From a virus (taxonomy: Duplodnaviria > Heunggongvirae > Uroviricota > Caudoviricetes): a stretch of 27,316 nucleotides of DNA. Shown here in pieces: positions 1,288 through 16,252 of this stretch. Location of the stretch: IMG/VR virus record IMGVR_UViG_2728369187_000003. One strand, 5' to 3'. How positions within the stretch are numbered: position 1 is the first letter of the stretch; each line of letters starts with the position of its first letter. Under the pieces are notes generated by a model. The model was not told where the DNA came from. It saw only the letters and a program-made list of their open reading frames with translations, and ran no database searches. The position numbers were made by a program, and so were the translations under genes.

Positions 1288-3729
1288 TTAAAAATCAGCC
1301 TGACTCGGGATCAGTTTTTGCCAGATAGCTGAAACGTATTTTGCCTGGTAACGAGCGTCATCAAGTGCATTATGGCGCTCACCTTCGAATGGGATAGCAG
1401 TTCTGGCATCGAAGTCTATGGCTTTCCCCAGCTCAACGATTGTGCGTACATCGCGATCGTTGCAGTAGCGCCACGGGCAGGGGATACCCTGTCGTTCGTA
1501 TGAACGGCGTAAAATCACGTTGTCGAAGTTGGCCCCATTACCCCAGACCTGAACAAAAAATTCACCGGAGTTTTCGTCGATAAATTCCCGCAATTGCAGT
1601 AGTGCATCATCTAACGGGATTTCATCGGTCATAATGGCAGACTGCGCTTCACGTGATTGCTTTAGCCACCATTTAATGACGTCACGATCAATGACTCCGC
1701 CAGCAGTATCCAGATCGATGGTCTTGCTAAATTCCGGTCCCATATCTCCGGTTTGTGGATCGAAAAATATTGCGCCTATTGAGATAATCGGGGCATCGGG
1801 ATTTTTTCCCATGGTTTCAAGGTCGATCATCAGATGAATCCCCGCTCTGCTGGTGGATGTGAGCTTATGATGACCATTCACCTTAATTAAGGGATCTGTC
1901 GCCTCGCCAGTTTTATTATCGCTGGCGTGATGCTGATTGCCGCCAGGGTTCTCCTTGTGTGGATGTTCAGCGCCTTCCATTTCCTCCGGATCATTTTCCT
2001 GAACTTCAACCTGATTCTCTTCATCGAATGTTTCCTGGTATGTTGCGTCGCCCATCACCGCGCCACAATCAGGGCAGTTGCCGCCACCGCTCTGACCGCA
2101 GGCGGTGCAGACTTTTTCCGGTTCCTGTTGCGCTACTGGTTCGGATTGTTTCGTTTCTGGCTCGTTTTGTAACGCATTTGGGCTGTTTTGTTCCGCTTTT
2201 TGGTCGTTCCGTTCCGATTCATGCTGGTTCTGGTTCACAGAATCGCGAGTCTGGATCCCCTTGACCCATTTCGGATCATTAGGGTCGCTAATCCCCTCAA
2301 CAAATTCACCACGCGATACAGCAAGTAACTTATCGGCGTCAGGCTGGCTGATATTGGCTGCCTGCATAATTTTGTTTACTTCGTCAGCGGTGACTTTTAC
2401 TTGGTTAGCGGAACTCACCTGCGACTGAGCATCCAGCGACTGCGCGTTCTGGCCATGTTCAGTTGTATCCGGTTCCATTGTTTCAGTTGTTGCCTGTTCA
2501 CCTGCCATTGCGTCAGATGGTTGTGGTTTTTCTTCTTCTGTTTCACGCTCAGTAACCACCTCGCGGTTAATTTCTTCCAGGATATCTTTTTCCGGCGTAT
2601 GCCGGGCAGCTGTGAGAGTTTCCTTGCTGGGGTTCTCGTGATCAGTTTCCGTCAAATAGGCGTTGATATACCCCTGAAGGCGTCCCGGGTAGTGATAAAA
2701 TTCAGAGTGTGCGCTTCGGATAAGTGCAAAAATAGCGGCGCGGGAATAGTCCAGAATACCCGGGGTTGCACGAAGTGCTGCGGACCATTCTTTGAACGGA
2801 CTTTCTTTGTTCAGGACTACTTCTTTTGCGCGACGATAAACGCTGCCCGGAATTTCATAAATATTAAAATCCATCGGAAGTGTGGCTGCTGCAATCTCCA
2901 CATCCAGTGTGTCGAGGGTGTGTACTAAATTCGGATTGCGATCGGTTTTGTTCCCACCGCCAGCATTAGCACCGGAAGCCGTGCGGGTGATGCGTGAAAC
3001 ACGATTTCCTTTCATCCACTCTTTTGTCAGCAGACCCCGATCAGTGTAGTCAGCGTCCAGGTATGCTTCGAAAAAAGCAGTTATTAGTCCCAGGTCTGAA
3101 TTACCAGGATTAGGGAAAACTTTGTCAGTGTCACGAACCAGTTTGTGGAGGTCGCGAATCTCCAGCGAGTCGAGCAGACTGGTTTTATGCGAAATAGCCA
3201 GGGCAGTAACAGCCGGTAGTTCTTCAGCCCGTGCAATGTGTAATGCCTGGAGTTCGTCGCGTGAAACGTGCGTTACTGGTTTTTCGCTGCCGTGTTGAGC
3301 AAGCCAACGAATGGGCAGTTCCTGACCGGAGACAGGCAGAAGCATGCTCTCCTCAATCTCAGTCATGTCTTCGCCGTTGATGTTGGTATTGTCAGTGCTG
3401 GCTGGTTTGTCCTGAACAGAGGGGGAAGGGCCGATAAATGTCATTGTGATGCCATCTTTCCCGCCTTTTTCATAGCGGTTGCAGAATTCAGTATCAAACA
3501 CGCCTTCTGGCGGAAGGTCGTCAACAACGGGCAAATTGACGCGGACGGGTTTTTTAAAGTCGTCTTCATCATAATCGTTGTCATCCATTGCGGTAATGCA
3601 GCGGGAGATTGCAACAGATAATTTTTTTGCTGTAGTCCAGTAAAAACCACCTTTAATTCCTAGGCGTTTTCTTACTTTGTCATTTTTTGCTTCGCAATAT
3701 AGTGCAAATTCTTCTTTATCAGTGCTCAT
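1288..3729 (-). CDS. Large early protein with C-terminal DEDDh (DnaQ-like) 3'-5' exonuclease domain
   Basis: 813-aa ORF; C-terminal region carries Exo I-like DLETMG, Exo II-like GNGANFDNVIL and Exo III-like HNALDDARY motifs; N-terminal half is acidic low-complexity with a CTACGQSGGGNCPDCG zinc-ribbon-like motif; GAGG ribosome-binding site 9 nt upstream of ATG. Confidence 0.7.
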   Translation of the reverse strand: MSTDKEEFALYCEAKNDKVRKRLGIKGGFYWTTAKKLSVAISRCITAMDDNDYDEDDFKKPVRVNLPVVDDLPPEGVFDTEFCNRYEKGGKDGITMTFIGPSPSVQDKPASTDNTNINGEDMTEIEESMLLPVSGQELPIRWLAQHGSEKPVTHVSRDELQALHIARAEELPAVTALAISHKTSLLDSLEIRDLHKLVRDTDKVFPNPGNSDLGLITAFFEAYLDADYTDRGLLTKEWMKGNRVSRITRTASGANAGGGNKTDRNPNLVHTLDTLDVEIAAATLPMDFNIYEIPGSVYRRAKEVVLNKESPFKEWSAALRATPGILDYSRAAIFALIRSAHSEFYHYPGRLQGYINAYLTETDHENPSKETLTAARHTPEKDILEEINREVVTERETEEEKPQPSDAMAGEQATTETMEPDTTEHGQNAQSLDAQSQVSSANQVKVTADEVNKIMQAANISQPDADKLLAVSRGEFVEGISDPNDPKWVKGIQTRDSVNQNQHESERNDQKAEQNSPNALQNEPETKQSEPVAQQEPEKVCTACGQSGGGNCPDCGAVMGDATYQETFDEENQVEVQENDPEEMEGAEHPHKENPGGNQHHASDNKTGEATDPLIKVNGHHKLTSTSRAGIHLMIDLETMGKNPDAPIISIGAIFFDPQTGDMGPEFSKTIDLDTAGGVIDRDVIKWWLKQSREAQSAIMTDEIPLDDALLQLREFIDENSGEFFVQVWGNGANFDNVILRRSYERQGIPCPWRYCNDRDVRTIVELGKAIDFDARTAIPFEGERHNALDDARYQAKYVSAIWQKLIPSQADF

Positions 3730-5411: not shown

Positions 5412-6050
5412 TTAAATATCTTGTTGAATTTTAAAGCATACGCCCAATATGCAAGATAGATCATCCAGCATAATTGAAGGGTAGCGAGGATTCGTGGGGA
5501 CTAAAAGAATATCCGGCCCTTCTATCTCCAGTTTACGAATGACAGGTGTTGTGGTCCCTTTGGGTAAGGCAAGGACAATATTTCCTGGTTGTACGGTTCG
5601 ATCGGGATCAACAAAAACTGTTGAACCATTTGGGATGGAAACTCCCCCACCAGATGTTGACATACTGTCACTCTCTAGAACAACTGCAAAGGTATTGGCC
5701 GGGATTTCTCCGACAAGCTGCACACAAGAGGTTATTGAGGAATTTTTCATATAATCACTCCAGCTTGCTGCCTGCTGAAGTGATAGTAGCGGAACCGTTT
5801 TTATCGGCGGTAAAGATAGATCAAGCGAATCACCTGTATTTAACTCTCCTCCATTAAGAAGCCAATTTTCGTTTACTTTCAATATCTTTGCCAGTGAACT
5901 TATGTAACGCGAGGACGGCGCTCCTCCACCGTTCATCCATTGACTTACGGAGCCTTTTGATGCGCCAGTGGCATTGACAAGGTCTTTGCCTTTCAGGTTT
6001 AGCGCATGCATACGTTGGGTTATGCGTTCAGATATTGTTTGCTTGCTCAT
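5412..6050 (-). CDS. CI-like prophage repressor (N-terminal HTH, C-terminal S24 LexA-like autopeptidase)
   Basis: 212-aa ORF; N-terminal HTH region; C-terminal SDSM...IRKL...LVPTNPRYPSI parallels lambda CI GDSM...FKKL...LQPLNPQYPMI; no ribosome-binding site upstream of the ATG, which overlaps an operator (leaderless, PRM-like). Confidence 0.9.
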   Translation of the reverse strand: MSKQTISERITQRMHALNLKGKDLVNATGASKGSVSQWMNGGGAPSSRYISSLAKILKVNENWLLNGGELNTGDSLDLSLPPIKTVPLLSLQQAASWSDYMKNSSITSCVQLVGEIPANTFAVVLESDSMSTSGGGVSIPNGSTVFVDPDRTVQPGNIVLALPKGTTTPVIRKLEIEGPDILLVPTNPRYPSIMLDDLSCILGVCFKIQQDI

Positions 6051-6113
6051 GTTTTGATTTTAAAACACAGATGGTTTTGTTTCTTGACTTTCTTTGGTTT
6101 TGATTATTAAACT
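6049..6113. promoter_or_regulatory. OR-like operator cluster and PR-like rightward promoter
   Basis: ATGTTTT-N6-AAAACA palindrome at 6049-6067 overlapping the cI start; further GTTTT/AAAAC inverted motifs at 6062-6079 and 6097-6112; TTGACT (6084-6089)-N18-TAAACT (6108-6113) ahead of cro. Confidence 0.5.
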
Positions 6114-6141
6114 TTTGGCGTTCAGTTTTATGGAGCGACTT

Positions 6142-6372
6142 ATGAAAAAATCAGAAGTATTAGGCTATTTTGGCGGAGTTGTTAAAACAGCCGCAGCTCT
6201 AGGAACGTCAAAAACCACAGTCAGCATGTGGGGGGAAGAGGTTCCGTGGAAATGGGCGTTGCTAATTCAGGCAGTCACTGCCGGGGCGCTCAAATATGAG
6301 TTACACATACCGACGGTTGTCATTCCCGGTTCTGATCATAATCCGCCTTCTAACCAAGGGGGGGATTCATGA
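6142..6372 (+). CDS. Cro-like small HTH regulator
   Basis: 76 aa from the ATG at 6142, with GGAG 6 nt upstream; divergent from cI; helix-turn-helix-like segment VVKTAAALGTSKTTVSMW. Confidence 0.7.
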   Translation: MKKSEVLGYFGGVVKTAAALGTSKTTVSMWGEEVPWKWALLIQAVTAGALKYELHIPTVVIPGSDHNPPSNQGGDS

Positions 6373-6794
6373 AAATCAAGCATGAACACATCCGCATGGC
6401 GATGAATGCCTGGGCGCGTCCTGATGGCGAAAAAGTTCCAGCAGCTGGAATAACCCAGGCTTATTTTGAGTTGGGTATGACGTTTCCTGAACTGTATGAC
6501 GACAGCCATCCGGAAGCCCTGGCTCGCAATACCCAGAAAATTTTCCGCTGGGTAGAGAAAGACACCCCTGATGCAGTTGAAAAAATTCAGGCGTTGTTAC
6601 CAGCGATCGAAAAGGCAATGCCACCTTTGCTGGTGGCCAGAATGCGCAGCCACAGTTCAGCTTATTTTCGGGAGCTGGTGGAGACGCGGGAGCGATTGGT
6701 GAGAGACGCTGATGATTTTGTCGCAGTGGCAATCGCCGGTTTCAATCAGATGAACCGTGGTGGCCCGGCAGGAAATGCTGTGGCAGTACATTGA
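6369..6794 (+). CDS. YdaT-family-like protein in the cII position (function unknown)
   Basis: 141-aa ORF whose ATG overlaps the cro stop (ATGA); begins MKIKHEHI, which I recall for YdaT-like proteins that follow Cro-like YdaS; not verified. Confidence 0.45.
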   Translation: MKIKHEHIRMAMNAWARPDGEKVPAAGITQAYFELGMTFPELYDDSHPEALARNTQKIFRWVEKDTPDAVEKIQALLPAIEKAMPPLLVARMRSHSSAYFRELVETRERLVRDADDFVAVAIAGFNQMNRGGPAGNAVAVH

Positions 6795-6865
6795 CTGACA
6801 ATAGCCATATCGAATCGCTTCCGGCAACTCGTGAGTAAAAAGATTCGGTATCAGAAGAGGTGAGT

Positions 6866-7936
6866 ATGGCTAACGCTTGGCTCAGATTATGGCATGACAT
6901 GCCAAATGACCCTAAGTGGCGAACAATTGCCAGGGTGTCAGGGCAGCCAATTGCAACAGTGATGGCAGTGTATATCCACCTCCTGGTGAGCGCGTCACGA
7001 AATGTCACGCGAGGTCACATTGATGTCACGACAGAAGATTTGGCAAGTGCGCTCGACGTGACAGAAGAGGTAATTGATTCAATTTTGCAGACGATGCAGG
7101 GGCGGGTACTTGATGGTGATTTAATCACTGGATGGGAAAAACGCCAGGTTCTTAAAGAGGACAACGGCAATATTTCGCAAACCGCAAAATCTCCTGCAGA
7201 GCGCAAGAGGGCGCAGCGAGAGAGGGAAAGAAAGCGGGAACAAAATGGCGATTGTCACGGCGCGTCACGAAATGTCACGCACATGTCACGACGAGTCACG
7301 ACAGATAAAGATACAGATAAAGATACAGATCAAGAAGATCAAAACACTATGGTCCATGGCGTAAAAAACGCCACGAACCAGGCAGGGGATGTTCAGACCG
7401 TCAATCTTGGTCAGCCAGCAGGCACGACACCGGAAGCCGATTCAGCGTATGCGCTGAAAGCCGATTCGGGCGCTGTGCAGCAGGTGATGACCGCAAGGCC
7501 GGAGCAATCACACCAACTGCAGCAGCCTGAAGCCGATTCCGCCATTCAGCGGGAAGCCGATCGGGTAGTCCCGGAAAACACCGGGCAGCCTGTGGGACGA
7601 GTGGATTATCCGGATGTGTTCGAACAGGTCTGGCGGGAATACCCGTTGCGTGCTGGGGCAAACCCGAAGAAATCCGCTTTCAGTGCTTGGAAGGCCAGAT
7701 TACGCGAGGGGGTGTCACCAGAGGCCATGCTGGATGGCGTGAGGCGTTACGCAAGATACCTTGCGGCTACCGGGAAAACGGGAACGGAATTTGTTCAGCG
7801 AGCAACGACGTTTTTTGGACCGGACCGGAATTTTGAAAACCCCTGGCTGCTCCCGGTAAGCGGCACGAACAACCAGCGTTGTGTGAATCATATTTCTGAA
7901 CCGGATACCGAAATTCCACCGGGCTTCAGGGGGTAA
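6866..7936 (+). CDS. Replication initiator (O-like) with origin iterons inside the coding sequence
   Basis: 356 aa from the ATG at 6866 (GAGG 5 nt upstream); occupies the O position after cro and the cII-like gene; two internal GTCACG iteron arrays and an AT-rich tandem repeat lie inside it. Confidence 0.65.
   Translation: MANAWLRLWHDMPNDPKWRTIARVSGQPIATVMAVYIHLLVSASRNVTRGHIDVTTEDLASALDVTEEVIDSILQTMQGRVLDGDLITGWEKRQVLKEDNGNISQTAKSPAERKRAQRERERKREQNGDCHGASRNVTHMSRRVTTDKDTDKDTDQEDQNTMVHGVKNATNQAGDVQTVNLGQPAGTTPEADSAYALKADSGAVQQVMTARPEQSHQLQQPEADSAIQREADRVVPENTGQPVGRVDYPDVFEQVWREYPLRAGANPKKSAFSAWKARLREGVSPEAMLDGVRRYARYLAATGKTGTEFVQRATTFFGPDRNFENPWLLPVSGTNNQRCVNHISEPDTEIPPGFRG
6991..7030. repeat. 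Iteron array 1: four GTCAC(G/A) repeats at roughly 10-bp spacing
   Basis: GTCACG at 6994, 7004 and 7025, GTCACA at 7014; the first 21 nt are identical to the start of array 2. Confidence 0.7.
7251..7330. repeat. Iteron array 2 (five GTCACG repeats) followed by an AT-rich tandem repeat; candidate origin of replication
   Basis: GTCACG at 7254, 7264, 7274, 7285 and 7295, then gataaagataca repeated about 2.5 times at 7302-7330; the architecture parallels ori-lambda inside gene O. Confidence 0.65.
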
Positions 7937-8684: not shown

Positions 8685-9218
8685 ATGACAACCTGGGTGG
8701 AAGTTGTTGATACGGCTGTGAAGATTGGATTTGGTGGTATAATAACGCTGACAGGTACATTTATTATTTCAAAAATGAATCACAAACATGAATTTGATAA
8801 AGATAAAAGTCGTCGCTATTATGATTCATTAGAATCTGTAAGCACTCAAATTGAGGATATGACACATATATCCTTACGCTATTGGGCTTTGATAATTGAA
8901 TGGGTTAGAAATAAGGAACAAAAGGGATTGGATCTTACCAGAGAAAGGCAAGAGGAGTTAAATAAAACAAAATTAGATTTATTTGACAATTTTAAAAGCT
9001 TGACAGTTGCAGAGTCGAAGCTTTTGCTTTTAGGTTTAACTGACACATCAGTTGCTTTAAGAGACTACGGTGATTATTTAAAAGCAATGCGGAGAAATTA
9101 TTATGATGGCAAACCTGATATTAAGGAGTCAGATCTTGAAAATGTAAGGGTTACGTTACTTTACAAACGTAAAGTCCTGTTTGATTTTTTGTCTAGGGAT
9201 TATAAAAAAGGAATATAG
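8685..9218 (+). CDS. Hypothetical membrane-anchored protein (177 aa), island gene A
   Basis: AT-rich codon usage; one N-terminal hydrophobic segment (VKIGFGGIITLTGTFIISKM) followed by a charged, probably helical region; AGAGG upstream. Confidence 0.55.
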   Translation: MTTWVEVVDTAVKIGFGGIITLTGTFIISKMNHKHEFDKDKSRRYYDSLESVSTQIEDMTHISLRYWALIIEWVRNKEQKGLDLTRERQEELNKTKLDLFDNFKSLTVAESKLLLLGLTDTSVALRDYGDYLKAMRRNYYDGKPDIKESDLENVRVTLLYKRKVLFDFLSRDYKKGI

Positions 9219-9595: not shown

Positions 9596-10519
9596 ATGCC
9601 ATCACTAGATACTATAGTTTTAAACCTCCTAAGAGGGGCTGTTCCTGAGAATGCTGATGAACTTTGTCAGACCTGGAAGAGCTATAAACACACGGTCGAA
9701 CTTGCAGAGGATGCCCTAGGATCAACAATGAATGCAACTAGTAGGCGCATCGAGTTTGACTCTAAAACTATCGATTTCTTTTGGTTATTTGGGTTTAGTA
9801 CATGGTTTACGATTGAGACATATGCTCCAGCCCTAGTAAAAGCATGCTTACTAGGTGTGACGTTAGAGTCGGCTTTAGAATCTGATGAAGAACGTGGCCA
9901 ATTTGAACTAAATTATAAACAGCATTTGTATATTTCAAAGTCTTTGCTAAGCGTTGCGAATACGGCTGATATTACATGGCCTCAAGATATTCCTTTTCCA
10001 ACAGATGCGCGAGATAGTTTGAATAATATTCAAGAACAGGCTGTTTTTGATCTAGTAGCATTAGCATTGTCTTTTTCTATACTTCATGAGTATAAACATG
10101 TTCAAGCACGAGCCGAAGAAAAAAAACATGAAAATCCCCAAGAGAAGGATGAAGAAGAGTTAGCCTGTGACTCTTGGGCTCGTGAATATATAACTAAGGG
10201 CGTCGGAGTCTATGCTAAAAAAGCTGGGCATACCTATGAAGAGGTCATGCAAAAACGAGCAATGGGGATAACACTTGCCGCCTTTACTATACACGCTTTA
10301 ACATCAGATATCGATAAATGGGGTGGTGAAGAGTATCCATCTATAGCAGTAAGGATTCAAACAATGATAGGGGGGTACAACCTTTCAGATTCATCGCCCT
10401 TCTGGTGTTTTACAGCTTGTCTTCTCATCGCGGTGATGAGACAGGAAAACCGTAAGCTTGATTATAAAGCTACAACATATAAAGAGTTTGTTACTAGGCT
10501 CCTTTCGGAATTACACTAA
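9596..10519 (+). CDS. HExxH zinc-metallopeptidase-like protein (307 aa), island gene B
   Basis: TAAGGAG ribosome-binding site 8 nt upstream; HEYKH motif at residues 164-168 within FSILHEYKHVQ; a hairpin terminator follows. Confidence 0.6.
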   Translation: MPSLDTIVLNLLRGAVPENADELCQTWKSYKHTVELAEDALGSTMNATSRRIEFDSKTIDFFWLFGFSTWFTIETYAPALVKACLLGVTLESALESDEERGQFELNYKQHLYISKSLLSVANTADITWPQDIPFPTDARDSLNNIQEQAVFDLVALALSFSILHEYKHVQARAEEKKHENPQEKDEEELACDSWAREYITKGVGVYAKKAGHTYEEVMQKRAMGITLAAFTIHALTSDIDKWGGEEYPSIAVRIQTMIGGYNLSDSSPFWCFTACLLIAVMRQENRKLDYKATTYKEFVTRLLSELH

Positions 10520-10572: not shown

Positions 10573-10980
10573 ATTAGTCGTGACTTGATCTGACACATGG
10601 CTTTGAAAGATTAAGAGTTACTGGTATTGATATGGGGCCGAAGTGTTATACAATACAAGAGGTAATTCTCATATTCCATACTAACAATCCTATCATCAAA
10701 CACAACGCCGGTTACTTAAGGTGGCTGAGGAACTCAGCAACGTATCCGAAGCCAGCAAAGCCATGGTCCTTTCGCAGTAAGTTGCGTAAATAAGGTGTTT
10801 TTATCCCTTGAAGCATTCTACAAAGCCAGCTCCTCGCTCAAACAGACGTGCCTGTTCACCAATCTGCCCGCTTGGTATCAAGGGACGCCAGTAACGCGAT
10901 ACAGGCGATACAGGGTGAATTCCTTCCTTAACTGCCCTCACATCATCTTTAATAATAGTTTACCCTGATATAACGGATGA

Positions 10981-12360
10981 TCAGAAGTCCATCAGGTCAT
11001 CGAATTTCTGAGGTGGCTCTTGTTTTCGAACACTATCTCCCTGATGAATCTCCGTCTCACTTGTTTGGTATTTTACACCAGTAATTTTATGATAAGTCAT
11101 ACTGTTGGTTTTCAACAGTAGTGCATCATTTTTGTCATGCGAGGATGAAAATGAACCCATATGTCTCGGTTTTATTTGTTCCTCAACTATTAACTGAATT
11201 TCCGGAACAAAAGCATACTGGTCATCTTCGATGTGTTCATACATCTCAACATTATATCGGCGAGATTTATCTGCGGCATGCCTGACGCCGGAAGACTTAT
11301 TAAACAGAACGACATTATATCCTATCTCAGCATCCTCACCGTTGGCATCTACCTGGGTAGATTTAAAGCTGACACCATCAAGCTTAAATTTATTTCGGTC
11401 ACCTAGGTAATCGGCAACCACTTGGGTGATGAGGTAATCACTGTCCTGCCTTTTTCCAAAAGTAGGAAGCGTCAACTTACGGGAAAGCGTACTGAAAAAA
11501 ATCGCGCGCTCACTGGTTTTGCGAGTCTGAGGATCAAATTTACTACCTGAGCCGAAACTAATCGAGTCAAGGGCAGAAATGTCCAGCACTTTTAGCTCGC
11601 GTAACGGTACAAAACAGGCCGTTACTACAATACTGCCGACGGGCGGCCTTACTTCAGCAATTGCCAAATTCACTGAGGTTGCACCGTAAAATACTGAAAT
11701 CCCCTGTGCGTTCATACGGCCCGACCGAGCCAAAGTTGATGGGGGAGGTCCAAAATTTTTCTCGGGCTGCTCCAAGGCTTGCTTTACTTCCTCTTGGTCC
11801 TCAAAGACCCTTGCACGAAAAAGATGAACCTCATCAGTCAGAGTTTTTATCGGTGAATTACTGTCTCTGTTTTTTAGTTTATCGATATCACTGAAAAGTG
11901 AATCCAGGAAATCATTAACTTCACGGTTAAAATATCGTGTTTCTTTCATAAGGGAGTCAGTGGCTTTACTCCAGGTATGCGCAAGCTCTCCGCTATAGTG
12001 ATTTATGTGCCGATAAACAAACCCATCATTATACCGGATGTAGTCATAATCGTTATGCGGATTATATTCATCACAAAGAAATTCATAAATATCTTCAGCT
12101 ACGTCCCATTCGACGCCCAGTTCTCCGCAGATGACATCCTGCGCGCTATCACCGCGCCCGGAATCATAGATATCCTCATACATATCATAGTAGTACTCAA
12201 AAACCTCATTCATCATCTTGAGAATATATTTGAGGTGGATGTTTTTACGCTTCCTTTTGCAGTAAGAGCAAATCCGAACATTATTTCCGGTTTTTATTAT
12301 ATGCTGCATGACATATTTATCGTTCACGCATTTATGACAAATATACTTATCTTTCCACAT
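10981..12360 (-). CDS. Zinc-ribbon plus RES-like domain protein (459 aa), island gene C
   Basis: N-terminal CHKC...CSYC zinc-ribbon-like motif; central SGRMNAQGISVFYGATSVNLAIAEV fits the R-x9-Y-x10-E spacing I recall for RES-domain NAD-targeting toxins; convergent with gene B. Confidence 0.55.
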   Translation of the reverse strand: MWKDKYICHKCVNDKYVMQHIIKTGNNVRICSYCKRKRKNIHLKYILKMMNEVFEYYYDMYEDIYDSGRGDSAQDVICGELGVEWDVAEDIYEFLCDEYNPHNDYDYIRYNDGFVYRHINHYSGELAHTWSKATDSLMKETRYFNREVNDFLDSLFSDIDKLKNRDSNSPIKTLTDEVHLFRARVFEDQEEVKQALEQPEKNFGPPPSTLARSGRMNAQGISVFYGATSVNLAIAEVRPPVGSIVVTACFVPLRELKVLDISALDSISFGSGSKFDPQTRKTSERAIFFSTLSRKLTLPTFGKRQDSDYLITQVVADYLGDRNKFKLDGVSFKSTQVDANGEDAEIGYNVVLFNKSSGVRHAADKSRRYNVEMYEHIEDDQYAFVPEIQLIVEEQIKPRHMGSFSSSHDKNDALLLKTNSMTYHKITGVKYQTSETEIHQGDSVRKQEPPQKFDDLMDF

Positions 12361-12427
12361 TTTTTACCCACTCATCATCAGCTGATACAAGGTCACTTTC
12401 CTGCAATTTTATAATTAAATCAAGCAT
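12347..12427 (-). CDS. Candidate 26-aa upstream ORF overlapping the start of island gene C
   Basis: GGAGGGGG ribosome-binding site 8 nt upstream of the ATG; MLDLIIKLQESDLVSADDEWVKNVER*; its stop overlaps the gene C ATG. Confidence 0.3.
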   Translation of the reverse strand: MLDLIIKLQESDLVSADDEWVKNVER

Positions 12428-12706
12428 AAAAACCCCCTCCTCACCTCAATGCTTTCAGTGTAAAAATAATTAGTAATACGCTGTACTGGTAATAATTATG
12501 AACTTCCTCTTCTCGCTCAAAGCGGACTAGAAAGTTAGCTTGCGTCGGACTTGGCGTATTTAAAGAAGTGCTGGTGGTGACTGGTTGTTGTGTTCCATTT
12601 CTACAGAACAAAATCACAGAAACTATACCCAATAGTTGTATTGAATCACTGACGAGACAGCCTCATATTTATCAGGACTGGTGTACGTCCAATACAGGAG
12701 GTTGTG

Positions 12707-12796
12707 GTGCTGGTTCTCAAATGTGCGCTGGCTATTGCTGCTGTAATGGCAATTTATTGCCTTGCTGTTGTTCTTATGGATCGCCTTTCTGATTGA
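12707..12796 (+). CDS. Candidate 29-aa hydrophobic peptide
   Basis: AGGAGG 5 nt upstream of a GTG start; MLVLKCALAIAAVMAIYCLAVVLMDRLSD*; a single predicted transmembrane helix with charged ends. Confidence 0.35.
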   Translation: MLVLKCALAIAAVMAIYCLAVVLMDRLSD

Positions 12797-12897
12797 TTTT
12801 ATATTGGCGAGGTGACGTGAGTTAAGTAGAATTGCTGCGGGTGCTTGAGGCTATCTGCCTCAGGCATGAACACCAAAGGCAGATAGAGAAAAGCCCC

Positions 12898-14773
12898 AGT
12901 TAACATTACGCGTCCTGCAAGACGCTTAACATTAATCTGAGGCCAATTTCATGCTAGACACATGTAGGTTAGCCTCTTACGTGCCGAAAGGCAAGGAGAA
13001 GCAGGCTAGTGTTAACACCAAGCTGTAATGTCCCCTTTGAACCATTCTAAAATGTCCCCAGACAATTCTCTGGGGGATTTTTCATGATCAAAGAGACTGT
13101 TACGATGAGTCATAAGGAACTCCACCGACTTCAGATTATTCAGGAGTCAATTAATCGACATATTACTCAGGAACAAGCTGCGGCACGCATTGGCATTTCT
13201 ATTCGGCAGGTTAAACGTCTGGTGCAACGGTATAGAAATGAAGGGCCTTCTGGTCTGGTTTCCCACCGACGTGGAAAGCGTCCTAATAATTCCTTTTCTA
13301 CTGAATTCAGAGCAACAGTAATTTCACTCCTCAAAGGCCGTTACGCTGATTTTGGACCTACGTTTGCGTGCGAAAAATTGCGCGAGATACACGGTTTATC
13401 TTTATCCGTTGAAACTCTCAGAAAGTGGATGATAGAAGAGGGGTTATGGCGTGAACGCCGTCGTAAAATTGCCCGTATATATCAACGCCGCATGCGACGA
13501 CCATCTTACGGTGAACTGATCCAGATTGATGGCTCACCTCATGACTGGTTTGAAAATCGAGGCCCCAGATGTACACTGATCGTTTTCATTGATGATGCCA
13601 CCAGTGCGTTGATGGCGTTGCGTTTTGTGCCTGCTGAAACAACCCGGGCTTACATGGAAACCCTCCGGGGTTACCTTAATGATCATGGCGTACCGCTCGC
13701 TCTCTACTCTGATAGACACAGTATATTCAGGGTAAATAACCCAGAGCGGGAAGGTGAGCTGACCCAGTTCACTCGTGCGATAAAGACACTGGGCATCGAG
13801 CCAATCCATGCCAACAGCCCGCAGGCAAAAGGGCGGGTAGAGCGCGCCAATCAGACACTACAGGACAGGCTGGTCAAAGAAATGCGGCTTCAGAATATCA
13901 GTGATATTGAAACAGCAAATGCATGGTTGCCGACCTTTATTGAAGCCTATAACAACCGGTTCGCTACGTCGCCTCGTACTACTGATAATGCTCATCTTGA
14001 TGAGCACCATTCTGAAGAGGAACTGGGTTATATCTTCAGCCTACAGGCGAAGCGCGTTCTGTCTAAAAATCTCACTTTCCAGTACAAAAGCAGTGCGTTT
14101 CAGGTACGCAGTGAGGGCCGGGGATATCGACTTAGGCATTCGGTTGTTACTGTATGCGAGAACTTTGACGGTGAAATTAACGTTCTGTATGACGGGAAAG
14201 CGCTGGGCTGGGAAAAGTATGTTGATGGCCCGGAGCCTATACCACTGGATGATGAAAAGAGTGTCCATGAACGAGTGGATAATGCCCGTATTGATTTACG
14301 CTCAAAATACTATGTTAAACCTAAAGCTGACCATCCCTGGCTTACGCGCCGAACGCAAAGTCATCAGCAAGTTAAGCCCCCGAAGTTACCTAAAAAGAAG
14401 CCTGATCCCGATAAAAAAGATTGAAACCAAGATCGATTCGGTTGAGTGCATATCCATTCATAGGGTAGATTCTTAAGTCGCGTTTCTGGTGTTCATTTTC
14501 GGGTGGTTTGTTACTTGTTTTACCGGGGATATGCCAGAAACGCGCTGAGTCAGTCTGGGCGGTGCGCGTAATGAGGCGTTATGGTAAATAGCCTATGCTA
14601 ATGTCCGCTAAGAGCAAGAAGCGGAAGTTGGCAGTTTTGTGGACTGTCCCCACAAAAGTGACTACAGAAATAGTTGCAATTCATAATTGATCATGGGTTG
14701 TCAGTTAAACTCGTGGCGATTTAAATAGACTAATTGGGAGTGCGTCCATTACTTATATCTTGTAATGTTAACT
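12898..14773 (+). mobile_element. Insertion sequence carrying a DDE transposase (ends uncertain)
   Basis: The transposase gene is flanked by a 12-bp inverted match, AGTTAACATTAC at 12898-12909 and its reverse complement at 14762-14773; hairpin-forming inverted repeats sit inside both arms; no direct repeats found. Confidence 0.4.
13084..14424 (+). CDS. DDE transposase with N-terminal HTH (IS481/ISNCY-like, family not resolved)
   Basis: 446-aa ORF; N-terminal HTH-like region (ITQEQAAARIGISIRQVKRLV), central integrase-core-like region (IQIDGSPHDW...LIVFIDDATS...) and a basic C-terminal tail. Confidence 0.75.
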   Translation: MIKETVTMSHKELHRLQIIQESINRHITQEQAAARIGISIRQVKRLVQRYRNEGPSGLVSHRRGKRPNNSFSTEFRATVISLLKGRYADFGPTFACEKLREIHGLSLSVETLRKWMIEEGLWRERRRKIARIYQRRMRRPSYGELIQIDGSPHDWFENRGPRCTLIVFIDDATSALMALRFVPAETTRAYMETLRGYLNDHGVPLALYSDRHSIFRVNNPEREGELTQFTRAIKTLGIEPIHANSPQAKGRVERANQTLQDRLVKEMRLQNISDIETANAWLPTFIEAYNNRFATSPRTTDNAHLDEHHSEEELGYIFSLQAKRVLSKNLTFQYKSSAFQVRSEGRGYRLRHSVVTVCENFDGEINVLYDGKALGWEKYVDGPEPIPLDDEKSVHERVDNARIDLRSKYYVKPKADHPWLTRRTQSHQQVKPPKLPKKKPDPDKKD

Positions 14774-15725: not shown

Positions 15726-15965
15726 ATGGGTAGCATTAACCTGCGTATTGACGATGAACTTAAAGCGCGTTCTTACGCCGCGCTTGAAAAAATGGGTGTA
15801 ACTCCTTCTGAAGCGCTTCGTCTCATGCTCGAGTATATCGCTGACAATGAACGCTTGCCGTTCAAACAGACACTCCTGAGTGATGAAGATGCTGAACTTG
15901 TGGAGATAGTGAAAGAACGGCTTCGTAATCCTAAGCCAGTACGTGTGACGCTGGATGAACTCTGA
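15726..15965 (+). CDS. relB: RelB antitoxin
   Basis: 79 aa MGSINLRIDDELKARSYAALEKMGVTPSEALRLMLEYIADNERLPFKQ..., near-identical to E. coli RelB from memory; stop overlaps the relE start. Confidence 0.95.
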   Translation: MGSINLRIDDELKARSYAALEKMGVTPSEALRLMLEYIADNERLPFKQTLLSDEDAELVEIVKERLRNPKPVRVTLDEL

Positions 15966-16252
15966 TGGCGTATTTTCTGGATTTTGACGAGCGGGCACTA
16001 AAGGAATGGCGAAAGCTGGGCTCGACGGTACGTGAACAGTTGAAAAAGAAGCTGGTTGAAGTACTTGAGTCACCCCGGATTGAAGCAAACAAGCTCCGTG
16101 GTATGCCTGATTGTTACAAGATTAAGCTCCGGTCTTCAGGCTATCGCCTTGTATACCAGGTTATAGACGAGAAAGTTGTCGTTTTCGTGATTTCTGTTGG
16201 GAAAAGAGAACGCTCGGAAGTATATAGCGAGGCGGTCAAACGCATTCTCTGA
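15965..16252 (+). CDS. relE: RelE mRNA interferase toxin
   Basis: 95 aa MAYFLDFDERALKEWRKLGSTVREQLKKKLVEVLESPRIEANKLRGMPDCYKIKLRSSGYRLVYQVIDEKVVVFVISVGKRE..., matching RelE from memory. Confidence 0.95.
   Translation: MAYFLDFDERALKEWRKLGSTVREQLKKKLVEVLESPRIEANKLRGMPDCYKIKLRSSGYRLVYQVIDEKVVVFVISVGKRERSEVYSEAVKRIL

Follow-up and report, generated by a model that had tools for sequence, protein, structure and literature searches.

Upstream of the RES-domain gene of an Escherichia coli lambdoid prophage lies a 26-codon open reading frame (ORF), which is probably (we put the probability at about 0.6) a young and unstable upstream ORF within a conserved non-coding leader of the anti-phage gene aRES, any effect of which would be exerted in cis and would be dispensable. 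The small ORF would most likely have arisen by a single CTG-to-ATG change inside this 64-nt, essentially non-coding leader, and a further A-to-G change in the lineage of the strain that carries the window (the whole 27,316-nucleotide stretch of DNA analysed) would have created a perfect GGAGG. Judging from its Shine-Dalgarno (SD) sequence and ATG only, the ORF is probably translated in the window strain if transcription starts further upstream. Its ribosomes would then cross the SD sequence and AUG of aRES and terminate 11 nt inside that gene. The only plausible effect of the ORF would be in cis, on the amount of aRES: upwards, if termination and reinitiation raised aRES translation, or downwards, if elongating ribosomes occluded the aRES start and lowered independent initiation. 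The peptide would have no function of its own, neither as an antitoxin nor as a regulator.

The downstream gene and its genomic contexts

The downstream gene (gene C; 10981..12360, minus strand) encodes a protein of 459 aa with a zinc ribbon, a HEPN/RES N-terminal domain 1 and a RES domain of the NAD+ phosphorylase type, and its ATG (12360..12358) closes a run of six adenines. The N-terminus of the protein, which begins MWKDKY, carries the CxxC...CxxC motif of the zinc ribbon. The RES domain is recognized by Pfam with an E-value of 5e-14; the match to PF18870 (HEPN/RES N-terminal domain 1) scores 21.1 bits, which is below the Pfam cut-off, and PF18870 is precomputed on many homologues. The combination of a RES domain with a HEPN-type N-terminus was described earlier (Anantharaman et al., 2013; PMC3710099), and stand-alone proteins of this architecture have been named aRES (Osterman et al., bioRxiv 10.64898/2026.01.28.702374), with 1,526 aRES loci given in Table S2 of that preprint. 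An aRES protein is defined by a length of 300-600 aa and by the presence of both RES and PF18870, for each of which the paper sets a threshold of >80% hhsearch probability. Gene C fits this definition as judged from its sequence, the decisive point being its identity to the aRES of E. coli UC5 (Table S4, Osterman et al.) at 399 of 399 positions over the first 399 aa compared. Moreover, the cloning primers for UC5 aRES match the window at 12327..12360 and at the 3′ end of gene C (10981). By these matches, gene C is identified as an already known gene, that of the published stand-alone anti-phage protein aRES. The identification came through the literature; gene C has no match in PADLOC (2023) or NCBIfam, and no homologues were found in the phage collection searched.

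The aRES protein protects E. coli from phages by phosphorolytic conversion of NAD+ into ADPR-1''-phosphate, and it is stated to be without operonic association to other genes (10.64898/2026.01.28.702374). In the Tn7 construct, the coding region was amplified from ATGTGGAAAGATAAG, with a synthetic ribosome-binding site (RBS; aagaaggagatatacat) directly before it, and this coding region alone, chromosomally integrated in MG1655, gave defence (10.64898/2026.01.28.702374). As the synthetic RBS stands directly before ATGTGGAAAGATAAG, the small ORF is absent from this construct, which is the only published aRES construct known to lack it. Because the coding region alone defends from the same ATG, the small ORF is unneeded either as an antitoxin or for aRES function. 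The other two aRES genes tested were from Enterobacter chengduensis and Klebsiella pneumoniae (10.64898/2026.01.28.702374). The Enterobacter protein is ~75% identical to gene C, and its closest sampled relatives (L085 type, 74%) are without an upstream ATG. The K. pneumoniae protein begins MNEEKYICHRC, like the L007/L115 type, in which the identity of the leader is at background level.

Across the locus the window is 100% identical to E. coli strain KV7, and aRES is placed between a hok/sok locus and a convergent gene for a Lit-like protease. According to megablast breakpoints, the gene is part of a 1.6-kb cassette (about 10905..12528, minus strand) that recurs at 98% identity in other places in 8 other E. 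coli genomes. For instance, the cassette lies in a P2-like prophage, where it is flanked by tail sheath and tail fibre genes (L002), beside pao (L003), and in a lambdoid prophage beside hokD (L001), while more distant aRES relatives are carried on conjugative plasmids and integrative elements. No upstream gene or overlapping ORF is shared among 69 more distant aRES loci, and the convergent downstream genes of four loci (L084, L085, L091, and L100) are related neither to one another nor to the Lit-like gene of the window. By these comparisons, gene C stands alone in differing contexts, without a conserved operon partner.

Position and signals of the small ORF

The small ORF (MLDLIIKLQESDLVSADDEWVKNVER*; 12347..12427, minus strand) extends from an ATG at 12427..12425 to a TAA at 12349..12347. 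The first-pass annotation had described it as a 26-aa ORF with a strong RBS 8 nt before its ATG, and this description is borne out on the minus strand. The purine tract GAGGAGGGGG (12433..12442, minus strand) serves as its predicted SD site; GGAGGGGG at 12440..12433 is followed by TTTTT and then by the ATG, so that the GGAGG core has its end 8 nt upstream of this codon. The predicted pairing with the 16S 3′ end (-14.3 kcal/mol) is the strongest among the 20 start sites scored in the window. Two other statements about the junction had to be corrected. The stop of the small ORF was said to overlap the start codon of gene C; it is located 11 nt downstream of the A of the gene C ATG, inside gene C, and 14 nt (ATGTGGAAAGATAA) belong to both frames. 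The RBS of gene C was said to be weak; its pairing of -6.8 kcal/mol is typical of the long ORFs in the window, the other 18 of which range from -0.3 to -11.1 kcal/mol.

Taken alone, the small ORF and its signals are not beyond chance, because ORFs of at least 20 codons are frequent (111 in the 7 kb around it) and the arrangement GGAGG-N4-10-ATG has 3 occurrences in the window, where shuffles would lead one to expect 4.4 ± 2.3. The ORF is notable by its position and orientation only. Its peptide has an acidic net charge and no family match in NCBIfam, and the ORF is uncalled by annotation pipelines in all 8 of the annotated records examined. An ATG preceded by GGAGG at 8-nt spacing is found in the window lineage only, the SD pairing of other alleles ranging from -5.2 to -12.0 kcal/mol. 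Termination close to the downstream start is seen both in the window and in the variants, in which the stop lies 1-14 nt upstream of the aRES ATG.

Distribution of the small ORF among homologous loci

Upstream DNA was compared among 22 distinct homologous loci with 59-100% aRES identity, together with more distant loci. Only a single shallow clade, with protein identity of at least 86%, has the ATG of the small ORF; its carriers are the window and L101, L105, L116, L117, L002, L003, L112, L004, L110, and L084. At the same position, the sister lineages L088 and L005 have CTG, and L089, which is nested inside the ATG clade, has ATA together with an in-frame TAA. The deeper lineages have CTG, CCT, CAA, CAG, CCG, or CTC, or their frame is interrupted by an in-frame TGA (L085) or broken by 1-nt indels (L091, L092, and L100). 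Within the ATG clade the length also differs, from 26 codons in the window type to 21 (L110) and 18 (L004), and a 19-codon form produced by a TGG-to-TGA change at 12368 is the common E. coli allele. In Klebsiella variicola (L084), a 1-nt deletion fuses the small ORF in frame to aRES, and the product (P0002) is annotated as a protein of 481 aa.

The offset between the two frames is set in the window by the A6 run that ends in the aRES ATG (12360..12365, minus strand). The distance from the GGGT block of the leader to this ATG is 5 nt in the window, 6 nt in L004 (A7), and 4 nt in L084; because it varies by ±1 nt, the frame relation between the small ORF and aRES is itself not conserved. The first-pass annotation had proposed conservation in homologous loci as a check on the ORF and had named an unconserved frame as the first half of its refutation. 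This is what the comparison gave: the arrangement is limited to one clade by its ATG, and is disrupted by stops, indels, and shifts of offset. One recent gain with subsequent drift would account for this pattern, and the small ORF, as far as these alignments inform, is neither a conserved peptide nor a leader gene nor an antitoxin. Its being the remnant of a truncated upstream gene, or an N-terminal extension, was considered separately and is ruled out by the variation in frame, the stops, and the family-wide N-terminus of aRES; the predicted disorder of residues 1-23 in the natural fusion agrees with this.

The conserved leader

Directly upstream of the aRES ATG, a leader of 64 nt (12361..12424, minus strand) aligns across the whole enterobacterial clade, with the conserved blocks CTTGATTT, AATTGCAGGAAAGT, TATCAG, and GGGT. 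Its identity to the window is 0.55-0.69, compared with 0.38-0.58 at the third codon positions of aRES and 0.42-0.50 in unrelated upstream DNA, and pS is 0.44 in the leader vs. 0.64 in aRES. The pN/pS ratio is 0.67 in the frame of the small ORF and 0.55 and 1.25 in the other two frames, compared with 0.27 for aRES. These alignments point to a leader that is constrained at the nucleotide level without a frame-specific coding signature, and it looks like a non-coding leader or promoter. A leader profile searched with nhmmer matched only upstream of aRES, within the clade. The variability of the leader by codon position is 0.41, 0.30, and 0.44; the second positions are the least variable, a weak periodicity that is possibly a trace of coding.

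The leader gives no sign of a conserved RNA element. RNAalifold predicts 0 conserved pairs from 13 sequences, the single-sequence fold is no better than that of shuffles (z = -0.01), no Rfam family matches 12340..12470, and no terminator is present on the minus strand between 12427 and 12360. An attenuation-type leader peptide was rejected on the absence of a terminator, of conserved pairs, and of an Rfam match in these searches. The block AATTGCAGGAAAGTNAC, considered as a repeated operator, has a single occurrence in the window.

Could the leader be a promoter, with the small ORF lying outside the transcript?

The leader may contain a weak candidate promoter and the 5′ untranslated region (UTR) of aRES. 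The first conserved block, TTGATT (12418..12423, minus strand), is a candidate -35 element, and GAAAGT (12395..12400, minus strand), which follows 17 nt after it, is a candidate weak -10 element. If a promoter were indeed placed here (12423..12395), the main transcript would begin past the ATG of the small ORF. In that case the ORF would be incidental and without effect, being either untranslated or translated without consequence, and the 64 nt would represent only a promoter and 5′ UTR. We regard this account as possible, although doubtful. It agrees with the fact that the homology of the deeper clade begins exactly at CTTGATTT, and with the spacing of TTGATT and GAAAGT, which are the two best-conserved blocks and stand 17 nt apart in almost every homologue, with a spacer that is variable in its first half. 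In L100 and L114, the first of these blocks reads TTGACA. The lack of both a frame-specific coding signal and an RNA structure, the chance-level frequency of GGAGG-N4-10-ATG in the window, and the average SD sequence of aRES itself are likewise what would be expected of an ORF without a role.

On the other hand, GAAAGT makes a poor -10 element, and together the two motifs fall below the threshold of a consensus promoter scan. The homology of the shallow clade continues ~60-100 nt further upstream and includes the -10-like motifs TACACT and TATTTT, which would put the small ORF inside the transcript. The clustering of single-nucleotide polymorphisms (SNPs) in the SD sequence, described below, also counts against an inconsequential ORF. 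Canonical sigma-70 promoters were found neither on the minus strand inside the cassette nor at a shared position in L100, L085, and L093, and no LexA, sigma-54, sigma-32, sigma-E, or antisense-promoter motif could be fitted to the leader by eye.

Variation in the SD sequence and in the position of the stop

Over 1901 nt, the window and KV7 differ from L116, L117, L101, and L105 at two positions only, 12439 (G/A) and 12433 (G/A), both of which are inside the purine tract GAGGAGGGGG. Among the 19-codon alleles, L002 and L003 differ at the position corresponding to 12440 of the window (80 nt before the aRES ATG) and at three sites in the gene. The predicted anti-SD pairing of the other alleles is -12.0, -8.0, -7.9, -6.3, and -5.2 kcal/mol, and a series of -7.9, -8.0, -12.0, and -14.3 kcal/mol can be arranged across alleles. 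The perfect GGAGG is a derived feature that only KV7 and the window share. This clustering of SNPs in the SD sequence is unlikely under uniform neutral mutation, and it is the sole hint that selection might tune the translation of the small ORF.

A second pattern concerns the end of the ORF. Three independent premature stops, at codons 19, 20, and 22, all fall within 14 nt of the aRES start, and by our own count codons that are one substitution away from a stop are about as numerous early as late in the small ORF. The chance of three late stops is roughly 0.09, which is suggestive only. Taken with the SNPs in the SD sequence, the late stops could reflect selection for translation that reaches the aRES start, in which case the cis effect may be more important than a dispensable one.

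It is on the stepwise SD series, the restriction of the SNPs to the SD sequence, and the stops adjoining the aRES start that a bolder proposal can be built, namely that the small ORF is a newborn cis-acting dosage control, under ongoing selection, of an NAD+-depleting abortive-infection effector. We consider this improbable. If it were true, strains would tune basal aRES by altering the number of ribosomes that the small ORF brings to the aRES start or keeps away from it.

Is aRES translation dependent on the small ORF?

According to the first-pass annotation, translation of gene C might depend on the small ORF. The geometry does permit coupling, with a strong SD sequence and ATG and a stop 11 nt past the aRES start; the dependence itself is unlikely, as the frame is unconserved and the SD sequence of aRES is ordinary. 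In its strict form, coupling would be obligatory: aRES would be translated mainly by ribosomes from the small ORF, as hok is by mok, and the ORF would be the main control of dosage. Such an arrangement would be in keeping with the 14-nt overlap and the strong SD sequence, with the observation that every truncated variant still stops within 14 nt upstream of the aRES ATG, and with the SD-strengthening substitutions having fallen in the lineage that has the overlapping arrangement. It is nevertheless very unlikely. L088, L005, L089, and all deeper relatives retain this leader and this aRES start without having the ATG. The SD sequence of aRES is as good as that of many genes and no structure is predicted to sequester its start (z = -0.01; no conserved pairs), so that aRES has an accessible RBS of its own; the gene is also functional from a heterologous RBS.

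The possibility that the small ORF acts as a leader was also raised initially. All that may remain of it is a dispensable cis effect restricted to the lineage; a conserved leader function is contradicted by the unconserved frame and by the activity of aRES without the ORF.

Does the peptide act as an antitoxin or as an extension of aRES?

The idea that the acidic 26-aa peptide could be an antitoxin-like inhibitor or a regulator of the RES enzyme was suggested by its net charge and by its location ahead of a RES-domain gene, an order known from Xre-RES modules. This idea is rejected and stands close to refuted: the start, length, frame, and sequence of the ORF are all unconserved, the SD sequence of aRES is ordinary, and the peptide has neither an NCBIfam match nor the conserved HTH/Xre domain of such antitoxins. 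Furthermore, aRES was published as a stand-alone protein that is tolerated and active from its own ATG without the peptide, and thus without a partner, and the ORF-derived segment is predicted to be disordered in a natural fusion. In the AlphaFold2 model of this fusion (P0002), the ORF-derived residues 1-23 have a pLDDT of <50 and no secondary structure, which is weak evidence given that this segment is without alignment depth. The remainder of the protein folds with a mean pLDDT of 78 and a pTM of 0.70.

Finally, that the small ORF is an N-terminal extension of aRES reached by frameshifting or slippage on the A6 run can be dismissed, even though P0002 (K. variicola, 481 aa) is annotated as a fusion and the A-run varies in length (4, 5, or 6 nt between GGGT and ATG), as the N-terminus lies family-wide just before the CxxC zinc ribbon, the aRES frame has a TAA 2 codons before its ATG, the extension is modelled as disordered, stops interrupt the ORF in close relatives, and efficient slippage needs a longer run than A6.

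Implications and comparison with known systems

The preferred reading, a young upstream ORF in a conserved leader, makes the small ORF dispensable for the known function of aRES and gives it little weight for biology at large. The analysis links the window to an experimentally validated aRES defence gene, and it indicates that aRES travels as a 1.6-kb cassette together with a conserved 64-nt native leader that published constructs omit. The SD polymorphism is a possible natural expression variant, which would be relevant to the native regulation or the basal toxicity of aRES. In architecture (PF18870 and RES), stand-alone occurrence, and prophage or defence context, gene C is the same as the published aRES; that paper does not mention the upstream ORF or the native leader, and its Tn7 construct swaps both for a synthetic RBS (10.64898/2026.01.28.702374).

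Three known arrangements invite comparison. In the type I system hok/sok, a short upstream frame (mok) overlaps the start of a toxic gene (hok), a likeness that extends to the possibility of ribosome delivery. The conserved mok frame covers most of hok, and its control is exerted by the Sok antisense RNA and by mRNA folding. Unlike mok, the small ORF described here is unconserved, no RNA structure or antisense element was found with it, and aRES has an SD sequence of its own. The Xre-RES type II toxin-antitoxin modules are similar in that they, too, have a small gene ahead of, and co-oriented with, the gene for an NAD+-degrading protein with a RES domain. However, their antitoxins, in the description cited from Skjerning et al. 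(2019) in PMC9503650, are conserved helix-turn-helix proteins, and the antitoxin of NatR-NatT, a module of the Xre-RES type, is likewise a conserved helix-turn-helix protein (PMC11535050). In contrast, the aRES locus has an unconserved peptide of 26 aa without a domain match, and its RES protein is the long stand-alone form.

The third comparison is with regulatory leader peptides such as tnaC and ermCL, whose short ORFs sit, like the one described here, in the 5′ leader of the gene that they regulate. Peptides of the tnaC and ermCL type need conserved arrest motifs, or else terminator/antiterminator or RBS-sequestering hairpins; in the aRES leader, by contrast, neither an arrest motif nor a hairpin is present or conserved. 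Short lineage-specific upstream ORFs that overlap downstream starts are common. The upstream ORF of aRES is previously undescribed, yet it is an ordinary example of such a lineage-specific leader ORF.

The aRES cassette and its surroundings

The gene for aRES, the stand-alone anti-phage NAD+ phosphorylase of the RES-domain type, moves as a 1.6-kb single-gene cassette that includes its own upstream region of ~170 nt. The cassette spans positions 10905..12528 of the window, and corresponding copies occupy 6001..7624 and 6001..7615 in the loci of two further E. coli carriers (L002 and L003, respectively). One copy, 98% identical, is held by a P2-like prophage, where genes for the tail sheath and tail fibre flank it, and another adjoins paoABCD.

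Across 1901 nt, the sole SNPs between near-identical aRES alleles map to the purine tract upstream of the 26-codon ORF that overlaps the aRES start (window 12433 and 12439), and one of the four differences in total between L002 and L003 falls at an adjacent tract position (window 12440). These substitutions could tune expression or, alternatively, mark a mutational hot spot at this site. In the Kluyvera locus (L005, ~2875..2935), a unit of ~29 nt, ACAATGGAAnCAGAGAGGTGnGGAGGGAT, is tandemly duplicated; it is the counterpart of the segment with -10-like and SD-like elements upstream of the small-ORF position.

Many of the distant aRES homologues (L009-L082) carry a short acidic N-terminal extension ahead of the zinc-ribbon CxxC (e.g., MADDEDGERICH and MSDDDDQKRVCH), which is absent from the enterobacterial aRES clade. 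In two plasmid lineages, a gene lies downstream of and convergent with aRES (L085 4556..5566 and L098 2691..3284, both on the minus strand). Both encode N-terminal ribbon-helix-helix motifs (RelB/FitA-like), with sub-threshold Pfam scores, and the two genes are overall unrelated to one another.

The hok/sok region

Between the cassette and sok lies a stretch of ~300 nt (window ~12500..12800). Among 5,426 complete genomes of E. coli, ~1,700 contain this stretch, and it is without an annotated feature there. Two plus-strand ORFs lie inside it, a Cys-rich one of 74 codons (12568..12792) and a hydrophobic one of 30 codons (12704..12796; MVLVLKCALAIAAVMAIYCLAVVLMDRLSD). The antitoxin RNA sok gives a strong Rfam match (12839..13005, plus strand, 112.8 bits). 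Comparison with KV7, an E. coli strain identical to the window across the aRES locus, places the onset of divergence exactly at the hokD start codon (~13009). From this codon onward the window contains an insertion sequence (~13009..14424), whose transposase ORF (13084..14424) has HTH and rve_3 domains, so that the hokD copy of the window appears to be disrupted. Further along, relB/relE-like genes at 15726..15965 and 15965..16252 form a pair, and behind them, at ~16316, lies a second copy of a hok-leader-like sequence, which matches the KV7 hokD region.

Neighboring defense genes

Convergent with aRES is a plus-strand gene for a Lit-like protease (window 9596..10519; Peptidase_U49), which is recognized by the PADLOC Lit model (E = 1e-18) and scores 185 bits against NCBIfam Lit, under the cut-off of 274. 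Adjoining it on the plus strand, a gene for a 177-a.a. protein (8685..9218) has a faint match to a "2TM effector." Together, aRES, the Lit-like gene and the gene for the 177-a.a. protein make up a small defense islet of this lambdoid prophage.
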